Source: Bacteroidota bacterium (lineage in GTDB: Bacteria > Bacteroidota > Bacteroidia > 2-12-FULL-35-15). Taken from it: a stretch of DNA of 30,362 nucleotides. The stretch spans positions 1 through 30,362 of the forward strand of contig JAYVZC010000524.1 of assembly GCA_043783695.1 (NCBI GenBank). The letters are read 5' to 3'. Below, one piece after another: positions 19,524 to 30,014 of this stretch. Below the pieces are notes generated by a model. The model did not search any database. It worked only from the letters and a program-made list of their open reading frames with translations, and had not been told where the DNA came from. Both the position numbers and the translations under genes were made by a program. The stretch's first letter is position 1, and each line of letters opens with the position of its first letter.

Positions 19524-19559
19524 CCCCTCTCCAAATGGAGAGGGGATAAAGGGTGAGGT
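19524..19559 (-). repeat. Family 1 hairpin repeat directly after the tolC stop codon
   Basis: Minus strand ACCTCACCCTTTATCCCCTCTCCATTTGGAGAGGGG, with stem CCCCTCTCC/GGAGAGGGG. Confidence 0.85.
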
Positions 19560-21014
19560 TTAGAATTTCAATGGTTTTCCTTGATAAAAGTCAAGCACTT
19601 TTGTTTTAAATACATATTCATATTTTGCTTGCAACAAATCACTTTGTGCTTTGATTAATTTATTTTTAGCATCGTTGTAAACATTGGTATTCAGTAATCC
19701 AACATTAAATTTTTGTTCGGTATACTTAAACGATTCTTGCATTGCCTCAATTGCTTTTAAAGATGCATTGTATTTCTTCAGTCCTGCGCTTGCATCTGCA
19801 TAAGCCTGTTGCACATTTTTTTGGATTGTCAACTTAGTCGACTCAACAGTTAAATCAGCATTCAACTTTTGAATACGAGCTCTATCAATAGACGTTTTTA
19901 TTTGAAAACGATTGAAGATTGGAACAGTCAAATAAAACCCGAAGGATTTATTTACGTTATCACTGTATTGGTTAGCAAAAGGCGTTTTTTCATACGTCCC
20001 GCTTGAAAACAATGGAGACAAAACAGTGTCACCGGCAGAAGTAATATCTCCATTAGCACCGTACCCTTGAAAAGCAGGCAAAGTTGAAAAACGCTGACTA
20101 GCTCCTGAATAACCTGTTCCATAAGATGCGCTAAATGTTAAGCGAGGACTCAATCCTCCCCAGGCAACATCCACATTTTTTTCAGCACTCTTCACCTTGT
20201 ACTCAGCACTTTTAATTTCCGGCAAATTACTTACTGCCGAATTATATATTTGAGTTGATGTTACAGTTAACAATGCATCTGTTCCGATATTCAATTCAGG
20301 TTTCACTATTGTTAAGCCATCCGCTGAAGGCATATTCAATAATTGGGCTAAATTCAAATACGAAATGTCTAATTGATTTTGTCCATTTGTTACATTTAAT
20401 TCTTCCAATGCCAATTGCGATTGAATGTCTAACAATGTTCCTTTTGCTAAAGACCCTGCATCAACTAATATTTTTGTTCTGTCGACCTGGGCAGCGGTTA
20501 TTCCCATTTGGTTTTTAGCATTGTCTACTATTTCAATGCTATACAATATTTGCAAATAGGCAGTAGCAATATTTAATGAGACATCGTTCTTCATCTTTTC
20601 GATATCGTATTTACCCGCCAGGTAAGTAAATTTATTTTGCTGGATGGTGTTTATGTTTTGAAAACCACTAAACAATGTAACATCCGTGCTCAATCCAAAA
20701 TTCTGAGAAAGTACTTGTGCATCGGCAAACTGATTTGTAAACCTGTCAACTGTTCTTCCTATATTATAAGAATGGGAAGCATTCGCATTTAAGGACGGCA
20801 AAAGATTGGCTTTACTTTGAGTTAAAGTTACTTGTGATAATTCAGTATTTAATTCCGATTGTTTAATTTGAATATTATTTTTTAATGCATAGTCGATGCA
20901 TTGCTCCAAAGTCATAGTTTGATTTGTTGCAGACGGAGTTTGTGCATTTGAATTAAATGCGAACAGTGCGGCCAAAAATGAACTCAAAATAAATCTATTT
21001 CTCAGAAAATTCAT
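19560..21014 (-). CDS. TolC family outer-membrane efflux protein
   Basis: Signal peptide from ATG 21014; LEQCIDYALKNN, LLPSLN, LTVPIF, YEYVFKTKVLDFYQG. A minus-strand TAAATTTG -7 element lies at 21032-21039. Confidence 0.9.
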   Translation of the reverse strand: MNFLRNRFILSSFLAALFAFNSNAQTPSATNQTMTLEQCIDYALKNNIQIKQSELNTELSQVTLTQSKANLLPSLNANASHSYNIGRTVDRFTNQFADAQVLSQNFGLSTDVTLFSGFQNINTIQQNKFTYLAGKYDIEKMKNDVSLNIATAYLQILYSIEIVDNAKNQMGITAAQVDRTKILVDAGSLAKGTLLDIQSQLALEELNVTNGQNQLDISYLNLAQLLNMPSADGLTIVKPELNIGTDALLTVTSTQIYNSAVSNLPEIKSAEYKVKSAEKNVDVAWGGLSPRLTFSASYGTGYSGASQRFSTLPAFQGYGANGDITSAGDTVLSPLFSSGTYEKTPFANQYSDNVNKSFGFYLTVPIFNRFQIKTSIDRARIQKLNADLTVESTKLTIQKNVQQAYADASAGLKKYNASLKAIEAMQESFKYTEQKFNVGLLNTNVYNDAKNKLIKAQSDLLQAKYEYVFKTKVLDFYQGKPLKF

Positions 21015-21109
21015 ATGCATCAGATGAGCCACAAATTTAAAAATAGAATTCGATATTTGAAGGATAAATCTCTAATTTAGTAATTGACCAAAAAAACAAA
21101 GGAAACCCG

Positions 21110-25297: not shown

Positions 25298-25353
25298 ATT
25301 TTGATCTTCAAAAACATTTCAGATTGCTGTCATGCAAAAAAAGCATCTGAAAT

Positions 25354-25390
25354 AAAAAATCCCCGTTTCGTAGCATGGCGGGGATTTTTT
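25354..25390. terminator. Bidirectional intrinsic terminator
   Basis: AAAAAATCCCCG / CGGGGATTTTTT stem between convergent genes. Confidence 0.85.
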
Positions 25391-25397
25391 GCTTTTA

Positions 25398-28300
25398 TTA
25401 ATAAGCCAAATTCGGACCTAACCAACGTTCTGCTTTATCCAAACTCATTCCTTTTCTTTTAGCATAATCTACTACTTGATCTTGTTTAATTTTGCCAATT
25501 CCAAAATAGTGCGATTGAGGATGAGCAAAATATAAACCACTAACAGCAGCTGTTGGAAACATAGCCATGCTTTCTGTTAAAATCATTCCAGTATTTTTTT
25601 CTACATCCAATAATTTCCAGATAGTTGGTTTCTCGGTATGATCGGGTTGTGCCGGATAACCTGGAGCTGGACGAATTCCCGCGTATTCTTCCTTTATTAA
25701 TTCTTCATTTTTCAAATTCTCCTCTTTTGCATATCCCCAGAATTCTTTTCTCACTTTTTTATGCATCAACTCAGCAAAAGCTTCCGCCAAACGATCGGCC
25801 AATGCTTTTAACATGATGGCAGAATAATCGTCATGGTCTTTTTCGAAACGGGAAACGTGTTCATCAATTCCAATTCCGGTTGTGAGGGCAAAGGATCCAA
25901 TGTAATCAGACCTCACCCCCGGCCCCTCTCCGAAGGAGAGGGGTGCGAGTTCCTCTTTAATTTTTTTGATTACTTCATCTATGGAAGTTAAAACAGATTT
26001 GTTGGAAAAACGGATTACTCTGTATCCGATATCTTCAAGCATATACGTTCTCCCATCATCATATTCTTTTTGATGATTGTGAATCTCTCCATCAACTTCA
26101 ACAATTAGTTTCTCTTCAATACAAATAAAATCCGCTATAAATTGTCCTATTGGATGTTGTCTTCTAAACTTCGATTCTAATTTACGATTACGTAACTCTT
26201 GCCATAATTTTTCTTCCGCTGGAGTTGGTGATTTACGCATACTTTTCGCATGAAGAATATTTCGACTCCAATTTTCCCAATCTGCAGTATGATATCTCGG
26301 AACGCCTCCCCTCTCCTTCGGAGAGGGGCTGGGGGTGAGGTCTTTTGGCAAAACAAAATCCGACAAAGCAACATTATATTGTCCGGCTGGTTTTTTTGTT
26401 TGCTGGCGCAATGAATGAAAAGTTGTTTTTATTTCTTTTCTACTTTCATCAGTATAAACTTCTATATCATCTGAATTGATTTGATTAGCAGGATAAATTC
26501 CAATCACAGCATTTGCCTTCAGCCATTTTTCATCAATAATCTTTTTTAACATGGCTTGAGCATCGTCAAATAATTTACGTGCTTCTTCTCCACGAGTTGG
26601 GTCTTTTAATATTTTTGGATAAGAACCTTTCATTTCCCAAGAGATGAAGAAAGGTGTCCAGTCAATGTATTCAGCTATTTCCGATAAAGGATAATCATTG
26701 ATGACTTTATTTCCAATGAAAGATGGTTTTACAATTTCTGTTTTATTCCAATCAATTGGAAATTTATTTTCGCGTGCTTCTGCTATTGAAATAAATTTAT
26801 TTTGTGATTGAGCATTTTTATTTTGTTCGCGAACACGGTCATAATCCTTAGTGATTTCAACCATAAAAGCATCACGCAATTCATCCGAAATTAAACTACT
26901 AGCAACTGGAACTGATTTACTAGCATCGTTCACATGTACAACAGGACCAGAATAATTTTGAGCAATTTTTACAGCCGTATGCACTTTAGAAGTTGTTGCG
27001 CCACCAATTAATAAAGGAGTTTTAAATCCTAAACGTTCCATTTCTTTGGCAACATGAACCATTTCATCCAACGATGGTGTAATCAATCCGCTCAAACCAA
27101 TTATATCGACATCATGTTTTTTTGCTTCCTCTAAAATTTTATCAGCAGAAACCATTACACCTAAATCAATGATTTCATAATTGTTACAAGCCAATACCAC
27201 TCCGACAATATTTTTTCCAATATCGTGAACATCACCTTTTACCGTTGCCATTAATATTTTTCCGCGCCCCCTAGCCCCACCCGACCTCCCCAAAGGGGAG
27301 GAGCTGGATTTCGAGTCTAAGAATGATTTGATTTTAGCTAATACATTGTCTGTGTCAACGAGAACTTCTTCATTAGTAAATCGAATTACTTTGTATCCTT
27401 TTTCTTCCAACCAGCTAGTTCTTTGAGCATCATTTTCTATATTTTCTGGTAATTGATGAATTAAGCCATCAATTTCAATTATTAGTTTTTTTGATAAACA
27501 AACTAGGTCAGCAATATATTTTCCTATTATATGTTGTCTTCTAAATTTATGCTCCCCTAATTTTTTTCCTTTAACTAAACTCCATAAGGCATTCTCTGCT
27601 TCAGTGGGATTGCTTCTATGTTTTTCAGCAAACTCCTTCAAAAGTGGATATAAAATTGGATCCGCTGTTTCATAATCATGACGATGAGCAGCTCCCTTTC
27701 CTTCGGAAAGGGCTAGGGATAGGCTTTTTTCTTTTTCGGCTTGAAGATAGGGCTCTAAATATGCAACTGCTTTTTTCATAACACGTGCACTCTTCACCAC
27801 TTGAGGTAAAAACATTTTTCCGCTTCCAAACAAATCACCCACCACATTCATTCCATCCATCAATGGTCCTTCAATAACATGCAAGGGCCGGCCTAATTTT
27901 AATCTTGCCTCTTCTGTATCTACATCAATATATTCTACAAGTCCTTTTACAAGAGCATGACTCAAACGTTCCTCCACTGTTCCTTTTCTCCATTCTTCAT
28001 TTTTCTCCGCTTTTTCTTTTGTAATTCCTTTCAATGATTCAGCATGGTCAACTAATCTTTCTGTAGCATCATCTCTTCTGTTCAATAAAACATCTTCTAC
28101 CAATTCCAATAATGTTTTATCAATATCATCATACACTTGCAATTGTGCAGGATTTACAATTCCCATATCCATTCCTGCTTTTACAGCATGATATAAAAAT
28201 GCACCGTGAATTGCTTCACGCACATGATCATTCCCTCTGAAAGAAAATGAAACATTACTAACTCCTCCGCTCACTTTTGCAAACGGAAGATTTTCCTTGA

Positions 28301-30014
28301 TCCATTTTGTTGCGTTGAAAAAATCGAGTGCATTTAACCGATGTTCTTCCATTCCGGTTGCAACGGGAAAAATATTCGGATCGAAAATAATATCTTGCGG
28401 AGGAAAATGAACTTTATCTACAAGCACATCATAAGCTCGTTTGCAAATATCAATTCTGCGTTGCAATGTATCTGCTTGTCCTTGTTCATCAAAAGCCATA
28501 ACAATTACAGCGGCACCGTATTGTTTTATTTTATTGGCTTGTTCAATAAATTTTTCTTCTCCTTCTTTTAAAGAGATGGAATTTACAATTGCTTTTCCTT
28601 GAACACATTTTAAGCCTGCTTCAATCACACTCCATTTAGAAGAGTCGATCATTATCGGCACTTTACTGATATCCGGTTCAGATGCAATGAGATTTAAGAA
28701 CTTGGTCATTGCTGCTTCACTGTCCAACATTCCTTCATCCATGTTCACGTCAATTACCTGAGCTCCACCATCTACTTGATCTTTCGCAATAGACAATGCC
28801 TCTTCGTAATTTCCTTCGTTGATCAAACGCAAGAATTTTTTGGAACCTGTAACGTTTGTCCGTTCACCCACATTCATAAAATTACTTTCGGGACGAAGTG
28901 TTAATGGTTCCAATCCGCTCAAGTGCATTAATGTATCGGCTGCAGGTATTTTACGAGGCTTTGACTCTTTTGCCAATTCAGCAATCCGTTTGATATGTTC
29001 AGGAGTTGTTCCACAACATCCACCAACAATATTTAAAAATCCGGCACGTAAAAAATCTTCGATCTGATGTCCCATTTCATGAGCATCCTGATCGTATTCA
29101 CCAAACTGATTGGGCAATCCTGCATTGGGATATGCACTTACATAAAAAGGAGCTTTGTTTGAAAGCTCTTCTAAATAAGGACGCATATCTTTTGCACCCA
29201 AAGCACAATTTAAACCAACGCTTAATAAATCGACATGTGAAATAGAATTTAAAAATGCTTCCGTAGTTTGTCCAGATAATGTTCTACCACTTGCATCGGT
29301 AATTGTTCCCGACACCATTACTGGCATCATAATATTTTTTTCTTTGCAAACATTTTGAATAGCAAACAAAGCTGCTTTTGCATTCAAAGTATCAAAAATG
29401 GTTTCAACCAATAACAAATCTGCACCGCCTTCAATCAATCCACGAGCTTGTTCTGAATAAGCAACAACTAACTCATCAAAAGTAGTAGCACGAAATCCTG
29501 GATCGTTTACGTTTGGAGAAAGTGAAAGCGTTCTGTTGGTCGGGCCAAAAGCTCCTGCCACAAATACCCCACCCCTGCCCTCCCCAAAGGGGAGGGAGTT
29601 GATTTCTGCTAAATATTCTGCAACGGCTTCTTTTGCAATTTTTGCTGACTCGTAATTTAATTCATAAGCAAGCTCTTGCATGTCATAATCCGCCATTGCA
29701 ATTGTAGTTGCACTAAAAGTATTTGTTTCAATAATATCAGCTCCTGCTTTTAGATATTCTTTATGAATGGCTTTAATAATTTGCGGTTGAGTTATCGACA
29801 ATAAATCGTTATTCCCTTTCAAGTCTTTATGCCAATCTGCAAAGCGTTTGCTTCTGAAATCTTTTTCTTCCAGCTTATATTGTTGAATCATGGTACCCAT
29901 TGCACCATCAATTACCAAAATGCGTTTTTCTAATTCTTTTTTTATATCAGACCCCTCTCTAGTTCTCTCCATTGGGGAGAGAGGGTTGCCTTCACTTATC
30001 TTTATCGTATTCAT
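25398..30014 (-). CDS. metH: B12-dependent methionine synthase with two in-frame DUF559 insertions
   Basis: [34 protein letters not shown], pterin domain, [20 protein letters not shown] and GIRPAPGYP motifs. At 1538 aa it is longer than the about 1230 aa typical of the family. Confidence 0.95.
25908..26343 (-). mobile_element. Putative DUF559 endonuclease cassette B with 36-bp terminal inverted repeats, in frame in metH
   Basis: Inverted repeats at 25908-25943 and 26308-26343 match at 35 of 36 positions. The interior encodes PTPAEEKLW...[15 protein letters not shown]...[10 protein letters not shown]...GYRVIRFSN. The mobility is inferred. Confidence 0.8.
27264..27725 (-). mobile_element. Putative DUF559 endonuclease cassette A flanked by inverted family 1 hairpins, in frame in metH
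   Basis: Hairpins CCTCCCC-AAA-GGGGAGG (27285-27301) and CCCTTTCC-TTC-GGAAAGGG (27694-27712) in inverted orientation. The interior encodes PTEAENALW...[15 protein letters not shown]...[10 protein letters not shown]...GYKVIRFTN. Confidence 0.78.
29566..29597 (+). repeat. Solo family 1 hairpin, in frame in metH
   Basis: ACCCCACCCCTGCCCTCCCCAAAGGGGAGGGA, translated on the minus strand as [11 protein letters not shown]. Confidence 0.88.
29950..29985 (+). repeat. Degenerate solo family 1 hairpin in the metH N-terminal extension
   Basis: GACCCCTCTCTAGTTCTCTCCATTGGGGAGAGAGGG with stem TCTCTCC/GGAGAGA, translated as [12 protein letters not shown]. Confidence 0.7.

Follow-up and report, generated by a model that had tools for sequence, protein, structure and literature searches.

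The cobalamin-dependent methionine synthase gene (metH) of the window, the whole 30,362-nt stretch of DNA analysed here, from a Bacteroidota genome of 3.09 Mb and 34% GC (G000), has a 435-nt block, cassette B, inserted in frame in its reactivation domain. This block probably represents a mobile nuclease cassette that is read in the host frame, in a copy that is old and has been inherited vertically; it consists of a DUF559 domain between two inverted, triplex-type modules of about 35 nt. The reading best supported by the sequence comparisons is that of a selfish cassette, which would survive in essential genes by being translated, spread site-specifically and decay to solo modules; sister species have sites with eroded ends, with an internal deletion, with only a solo module or with no insert at all, a set of states resembling the life cycle of a homing element. 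If so, introns and inteins would be joined by a third means by which a selfish nuclease gene can reside in essential genes, namely by being kept as an extra protein domain. The metH loop was searched for the cassette in 24 species of the same genus as G000, all the genomes being metagenome-assembled genomes (MAGs). Positions are those of the window, in which metH lies on the minus strand, and the main features are as follows.

25398 to 30014, minus strand: host gene metH, cobalamin-dependent methionine synthase (open reading frame, Pfam and NCBIfam).
25908 to 26342, minus strand: cassette B, 435 nt or 145 codons, in frame with metH, with a stop-free translation.
26308 to 26343, minus strand: 5' end module (in the coding sense), with tail 26331-26342, 2-nt spacer and hairpin 26308-26328, encoding 12 residues.
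26256 to 26307, minus strand: cassette-specific N-terminal extension, between the 5' module and the DUF559 core (translation).
25947 to 26255, minus strand: DUF559 (Vsr-like PD-(D/E)xK) nuclease core (Pfam PF04480, PDB 3HRL).
25908 to 25943, minus strand: 3' end module (in the coding sense), with hairpin 25923-25943, 2-nt spacer and tail 25909-25920, encoding 12 residues.

The metH open reading frame (ORF) encodes 1538 amino acids rather than the usual 1230 or so, and carries two extra DUF559 domains, in cassettes A and B. The host enzyme is complete: all five MetH domains are found with Pfam, the NCBIfam metH equivalogs exceed their cut-off (2087.8 bits vs 1497), and RPAPGYP and other invariant residues of the activation domain are retained. 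An earlier note on this DNA, made from the letters alone, had placed a 435-bp, 145-codon block exactly between ...VLPK and DYIG..., where, according to it, the family has a short loop (Escherichia coli PKLSGKADY). The translation confirms these limits, and an alignment with E. coli MetH (PDB 3BUL) bears out the loop, which has three residues and lies between APK(402) and KADY(406).

The ends of cassette B form by far the strongest inverted repeat of the window (25908-25943 and 26308-26343; 36 nt, 35/36 or 97% complementary, arms 364 nt apart), and base 36 of the repeat is the final base of the Lys codon of ...VLPK. Each arm has a 9-bp stem and a 3-nt loop, so that the description given in the earlier note, of near-perfect 36-bp inverted ends with one mismatch and a hairpin in each, stands unchanged. 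The 21-nt hairpin core occurs four times (two sites on both strands), vs none in 100 shuffled sequences. No target-site duplication was found at the junctions of cassette B, either by direct reading or by comparison with empty alleles, and the note had seen none either. A DDE-type insertion sequence or miniature inverted-repeat element was rejected as an identification: the element has inverted repeats, but none of the junctions read shows a duplication and there is no transposase.

The nuclease core matches PF04480 with an E-value of 1e-36 (125.5 bits, cut-off 20.6) and PDB 3HRL with an E-value of 1.7e-21; to our knowledge, 3HRL is the only DUF559 protein with a solved structure. The putative catalytic residues that the note had reported as intact are indeed present, in the sequence EVDGEIH and upstream of it (codons of D1295 at 26132-26130, E1306 at 26099-26097, D1308 at 26093-26091 and H1312 at 26081-26079), and the D...E-x-D-G-x-x-H motif is invariant across 17 orthologous cassettes. 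Cassette B scores 78 bits against the YcjD equivalog NF007294, below the cut-off of 218. It contains no EDxHD motif, 3R3P is absent from its PDB matches at E <= 1, and no PADLOC defence model was matched. Structure prediction for the activation domain with the cassette was poor (mean pLDDT 53.9, low-confidence linkers) and was not used as evidence.

The two end modules share a particular layout. In each, the stem is homopyrimidine/homopurine and the adjoining G-rich tail mirrors the purine arm (G.G, A.A, T.A) at nine of nine positions. This is the class II layout of pyrimidine arm, loop, purine arm, loop and reverse-Hoogsteen tail, described by Holder 2015 (PMC4666352) and, as cited there, by Hoyne and Maher 2000. 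Across the whole of G000, 52 of 87 GC-rich hairpins are homopyrimidine/homopurine, and in 48 of these 52 the mirror tail is complete. Stem and tail covary across five stem classes, the mirror rule accounting for 0.94 of arm length, vs 0.59 for a direct-repeat rule; none of 2000 tail permutations reached the observed mirror score, a count that cannot be read as a probability because the copies are related. The cassette ends thus have the class II intrastrand-triplex motif of the BoxC/PIT/TM type, with folding predicted from the layout. Triplex formation has been shown in vitro for the E. coli repeats of this type, TMECO, which are said to be always intergenic, with no mobility function found nearby (Holder 2015, PMC4666352). 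In G000, 13 of the 52 modules lie inside long open frames. Translated together with the short surface loop of MetH in which they stand, the modules of cassette B would become Pro/Ser/Gly-rich linkers, so that no intron or intein would be needed.

Cassette B appears, from its substitution pattern, to be old and vertically inherited, having co-diverged with metH in this lineage. Among the species of the genus, the same cassette stands at the same junction in G023, G017 and G007, and it is shared by several other Bacteroidia MAGs, including RIFCSPLOWO2_12_FULL_35_15, L077 and L078. Synonymous divergence (dS) between G000 and G023 is 0.55 for the cassette and 0.64 and 0.86 for the two flanks; the corresponding values are 1.06, with flanks at 1.19 and 1.81, for G017, and 1.81, with flanks at 1.56 and 1.31, for G007. 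Third-position identity does not differ between cassette and flanks in any of these three comparisons. As the cassette matches its flanks in dS and the junction is shared, the G000 copy predates these speciations. The earlier note had proposed a probably recent insertion in the MetH reactivation domain; insertion at that place, with hairpin-bearing inverted ends, is upheld, but the recent date conflicts with the co-divergence. A recent arrival in the metH of this genome, with ends still nearly identical for lack of time, would fit the 35/36 identity of the arms and the intact nuclease motif. It is nevertheless very improbable, given the orthologous cassettes at the same junction, the agreement of cassette and flank dS up to 1.8 and the fully identical ends of G017, and for the G000 copy we take the alignments to refute it.

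The youthful look of the cassette ends can be traced to conservation. Nine orthologues show almost no variation in the 11-nt tail and the two 9-nt arms, their differences lying in the loop (GAA/AAA) and the 2-3-nt spacer; stems and tails are conserved as nucleic-acid structure, even at dS above 1, and this gives the ends their young look. The arms of G017 are identical at 36/36 positions despite a dS of about 1 from G000, and end identity is, therefore, no measure of age. More generally, near-perfect inverted repeats cannot date an insertion if the repeats themselves are under selection. Erosion does occur: in G023, the nearest relative, the stem of one end has two mismatches and the tail of the other lacks 6 nt, and G007 has lost one end. 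The note had imagined, as an outcome contrary to its proposal, close relatives all carrying the insert with eroded ends, or a domain evolving neutrally; G023 does carry the insert with eroded ends, but other close relatives lack it and the domain is not neutral. Concerted evolution of the two ends, suggested by G000 (35/36) and G017 (36/36), was considered and rejected, as the ends of L077, L078 and of the metH alleles P0003 and P0005 differ in loop or spacer.

The same loop has had a varied history within the genus. Four species carry the cassette described above (type 1). G008 has a type-2 cassette with another stem, whose nuclease is 44% identical to that of type 1 and groups with a cassette of isoleucyl-tRNA synthetase (IleRS), which indicates an independent invasion of the same loop by a second subfamily. 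In G014, the type-2 ends remain and the nuclease has been lost by internal deletion, G024 has a solo type-2 module, and the sister species G004 and G018 retain only the 3' module and only the 5' tail, respectively, of a type-1 cassette. The loop is short and empty in G020, G003, G001 and G022. The carriers are not monophyletic on the flank tree, the deep nodes of which are weak (trees were built on 345 and 105 columns). L077 and L078 have a type-2 tail remnant just 3' of their type-1 cassette, pointing to successive occupancy of the loop. Comparison of G017 with the empty allele of G020, a check proposed in the note, defines the junction and shows that the target was not duplicated. In G016 (L036), the loop is occupied by a peptide insert of unrelated origin (..GDSFASLGMT..), of a sort typical for a different family of translated repeats, and several kinds of insert are thus tolerated there.

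Comparison of 17 filled alleles shows at least two cases in which cassette DNA has been transferred between diverged metH alleles to precisely this site. As a rule, the cassette is less conserved than its flanks (67% vs 74% protein identity), and two pairs of alleles are outliers, at 4.7 and 4.0 standard deviations, with an unusually similar cassette. For P0003 and P0006, the cassettes are 92% identical in nucleotides, with third positions at 0.83, vs 79% and 0.54 for the rest of metH and 0.50 for the flanks (Fisher p 1.6e-12); for P0005 and P0010, the figures are 92% and 0.84 for the cassette, 81% and 0.60 for the rest of metH and 0.57 for the flanks (Fisher p 3e-9). In P0003/P0006, no more than about 15 nt separates the edges of the high-identity block from the module ends. 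The route of transfer could be de novo insertion, homing through a double-strand break with very short tracts, or a swap by recombination in the conserved modules, all of which would fit. No such signal is seen for the G000 copy itself; the comparison that comes closest to such an excess of cassette over flank similarity, with P0003 (0.69 vs 0.53, p = 7e-4), is borderline. A further candidate transfer, between the type-2 parts of G008 and G014 (90% vs 74-79% for the flanks), was discarded, the excess outside the conserved modules not being significant. The P0005 and P0010 alleles (loci L145/L146) have additional G-rich sequence on the 3' side of the cassette and, some 35 codons upstream of it, a further solo module in a different loop of the activation domain.

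Cassette B belongs to a family with a strict architecture. All five DUF559 genes of G000 are flanked by modules, as are 17 of 20 free-standing DUF559 genes of relatives. Among the modules of 26 in-frame cassettes, taken from G000 and related genomes, all but one (41 of 42) have the order tail-hairpin, nuclease, hairpin-tail, and the 5' hairpin lies 71-84 nt ahead of the DUF559 core in nearly all of these cassettes. Free-standing DUF559 genes mostly have the opposite arrangement, hairpin-tail, gene, tail-hairpin (18/23 modules), and the three free-standing copies of G000 form a clade separate from the in-frame cassettes (support 100/100). No common target sequence or duplication was seen at the junctions of the 26 cassettes. 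Within the same taxonomic class as G000, in-frame DUF559 cassettes occur in leucyl-tRNA synthetase (LeuRS, at several sites), acetyl-CoA synthetase (Acs), an IcmF-type mutase, RecJ, IleRS and HsdR, and also in an aldehyde dehydrogenase fusion, a CoA-transferase and a SpoIIE sensor; helicases, PriA and methylases have in-frame cassettes too. Among the carriers are Flavobacterium, Nonlabens and Hymenobacter, those with the LeuRS cassette including Nonlabens spongiae and Flavobacterium zepuense, and relatives of the cassette are also found in MAGs of other phyla. In the tree, cassettes group by host site and not by genome, which is the pattern of homing elements rather than that of a transposon jumping within a genome. 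In annotation, MetH, LeuRS and similar proteins of excessive length, from Bacteroidota and from other phyla, should be taken as host enzyme plus cassette rather than as new domain fusions.

The whole of cassette B is under purifying selection at the codon level in the host frame, the ratio of nonsynonymous to synonymous divergence (omega) being 0.12-0.16 against orthologues, and 0.04-0.14 in the flanking metH. This argues against the removal of the insert around protein synthesis, as an intein, an intron or a stretch bypassed by the ribosome over its paired ends, leaving mature MetH without it. The 36-nt arms could pair in the mRNA, but no intein/Hint domain was detected in the metH ORF by Pfam at E <= 0.01, the junctions K|DLTP and VRS|DYIG are without the Cys/Ser/Thr or His-Asn residues of inteins, and no Rfam intron family was found in 25300-27900, where the only matches were two sub-threshold small RNA matches outside the cassette. 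The take-off and landing codons at the ends of cassette B do not match. Together with selection along the entire cassette, these results make removal scarcely credible. Selection over such long times would also be expected of a nuclease fold recruited for a host function in MetH and no longer selfish. Such domestication is highly unlikely, however, given that the same type of cassette sits in many unrelated enzymes, that it is patchy among sister species, with empty and decayed sites, that horizontal replacement happens and that the ends are conserved as DNA.

The nuclease may drive the cassette or only travel in it. In the preferred reading, of a selfish cassette, the nuclease made as a MetH domain would nick or cut the structured modules or the empty site, and the cassette would then be copied in by host recombination or repair, a route that would account for the missing target duplication. 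We infer movement driven by the cassette's own nuclease from the strict architecture of nuclease and modules and from the selection on the nuclease. We would go further only tentatively, and propose as a possibility that DUF559 is the missing protein partner of the BoxC/PIT/TM repeats, a structure-specific nuclease that recognises the folded ends or the empty site and drives a homing free of introns and inteins, solo repeats and mini-elements being decay products or non-autonomous riders. If true, this would provide a function and a candidate enzyme for the BoxC/PIT triplex repeats, which E. coli K-12 also has and for which an explanation has been lacking since the 1990s. The main rival of the selfish-cassette reading, which we hold to be rather unlikely, is that the triplex-hairpin modules are themselves active or recombinogenic, spreading through a host or other factor or being exchanged by recombination, and that DUF559 is a cargo serving a separate purpose (repair, defence or repeat maintenance) that happens to be retained between two modules. 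Mini-elements of 116-159 nt with the same ends and no nuclease would fit such a passenger, as would transfer edges at conserved modules, where recombination could take place. It accounts less well for a cargo of tails-out pairs that is always DUF559, at a fixed distance and orientation (41/42 modules), for the flanking of DUF559 genes by modules (five of five in G000, 17/20 in relatives), for the correlation of module and DUF559 counts (Spearman 0.57 over 41 genomes, which are related to one another), for the RAYT-type transposases of G000, which carry other repeats, and for purifying selection on the nuclease inside unrelated host proteins.

Several observations weigh against a selfish, nuclease-driven cassette, some of them in favour of a passenger nuclease. 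Solo modules far exceed nucleases in G000 (about 50 to 5), and 13 of 52 stand in frame within other genes; G019 contains no DUF559 alongside its 31 modules; and G008, with an intact type-2 cassette, has no solo type-2 modules beyond its own two ends. Ordinary recombination in the conserved modules could have swapped the cassettes in the transfers described above, the nuclease being uninvolved. No two cassettes of G000 are more than 50% identical, and there is thus no recent jumping within this genome. That the cassette is translated as an internal MetH domain is deduced from its frame and from selection, and no published nuclease activity, cut site or target was found for any DUF559 protein. 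Contigs of the source metagenome contain cassette B with 0 differences and no joint that skips it, although assembled contigs cannot reveal rare excised or empty forms; one contig joint (26343 to 27274) is a repeat-to-repeat join with a 29-nt side. The idea of cognate amplification, with each cassette type leading to a genome rich in matching solo modules, was abandoned, as G008 holds only its own two type-2 ends.

Among known systems, the closest parallels are the homing endonuclease genes of inteins and group I introns, such as I-Bth0305I (Taylor 2011, PMC3239194; Dassa 2009, PMC2677866). Like these, the cassette has a nuclease ORF at one precise site of a housekeeping gene, a patchy distribution with empty sites, lineages tied to a site, horizontal spread to the same site, and decay or loss, and the fold of cassette B belongs to the same Vsr-like group as I-Bth0305I. 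Unlike homing endonuclease genes, it has no splicing element and stays in the protein, and its structured inverted-repeat ends are absent from homing elements; its motif is ExDGxxH rather than the EDxHD of I-Bth0305I, 3R3P is not found from its sequence, and cleavage of the empty site is only putative here. With the BoxC/PIT/TM repeats, the modules share the class II layout, variable loops and dispersal, whereas TMECO are reported to be always intergenic, with no mobility gene found (Holder 2015, PMC4666352), and the modules of the cassette bracket a nuclease gene and are translated inside proteins. Rickettsia palindromic elements and REPs in ORFs, as reviewed by Di Nocera 2013 (PMC3733652), are likewise short palindromes in frame in protein loops; they carry no gene, unlike the module pair here, which carries a nuclease domain. 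REP/REPIN-RAYT systems (REPtrons) also have a single-copy-type enzyme gene between inverted dispersed hairpins, and doublet mini-elements, but the enzyme here is a PD-(D/E)xK hydrolase and not a Y1/HUH transposase, and the triplex-type repeats lack the GTAG/CGTC tag. ShiLan, in phage DNA methylase genes (Arsenault 2025, PMC11855218), resembles the cassette in being in frame and non-splicing, in its homing-like evolution and in its tolerated loop; its HNH gene is out of frame, whereas the cassette nuclease is in the host frame, without a start codon of its own, and has hairpin-triplex ends. No published description of this type of cassette was found in the literature searched. New here are the dating of the copy, the rule of orientation for in-frame as opposed to free-standing copies, the series of decay states at one site, and the two transfers, with edges near the modules where these were read.

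Two further module-bearing features lie within metH.

27264 to 27725, minus strand: cassette A, another DUF559 cassette in the metH frame, located between the cap domain and the cobalamin domain.
29578 to 29596, minus strand: solo module translated within metH, encoding 11 residues (context only).

Cassette A is 50% identical to cassette B and has the same tail-hairpin...hairpin-tail layout with different stems. In run X3, related organisms have contigs in which 27233 is joined to 27769 and 27245 to 27749, and these correspond to metH alleles without cassette A. Another solo module, of type 1 (9-bp stem, mirror tail), is found at 19524-19545, just downstream of the ORF at 19560-21032.

Elsewhere in G000, all seven pairs of modules in opposite orientation less than 1 kb apart are tails-out, and six are mini-elements of 116-159 nt without a nuclease (C429:1735-1885, C429:4226-4374, C251:2928, C305:3273, C485:3219 and C494:3236); the two on C429 share their inner sequence and each occupies an intergenic spacer. 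A second family of GC-rich hairpins, with the stem CCTGCCTGCC/GGCAGGCAGG and about 30 copies, is not homopurine/homopyrimidine (e.g. C42:1538, C79:4433, C153:2417). The genome has three Y1-transposase (RAYT/IS200-like) genes (C485:4480-5070, C255:100-790 and C190:508-864), and those on C485 and C255 are bracketed by inverted palindromic repeats of their own, unrelated to the triplex modules. A REPtron, made up of REPs and a RAYT, was thus rejected as an identification, the gene flanked by triplex modules being DUF559.

A search of E. coli K-12 recovered the 23 published TMECO sites and no others. One full TMECO/BoxC motif lies 168 nt downstream of ycjD, the sole DUF559 gene of this genome (NC_000913; L142 6190-6420, record 1351205-1351420). 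The stop codon of ycjD is overlapped by a degenerate module, and between this module and the full TMECO there is a duplicated 3' fragment of ycjD. It is unlikely (roughly 0.005) that one of the 23 TMECO would stand so near ycjD by chance. TMECO also form inverted doublets in this genome, at 164547/164598, 624579/624642, 3045989/3046053, 3239599/3239663 and 3781029/3781121, four being tails-in and one tails-out; by analogy, these doublets resemble DUF559 brackets minus the gene.

Right after the metH stop codon of the window, at 25316-25408, there is a weak Rfam match to BSnc120 (28.5 bits vs a gathering score of 114); this segment is probably another structured repeat or a terminator.

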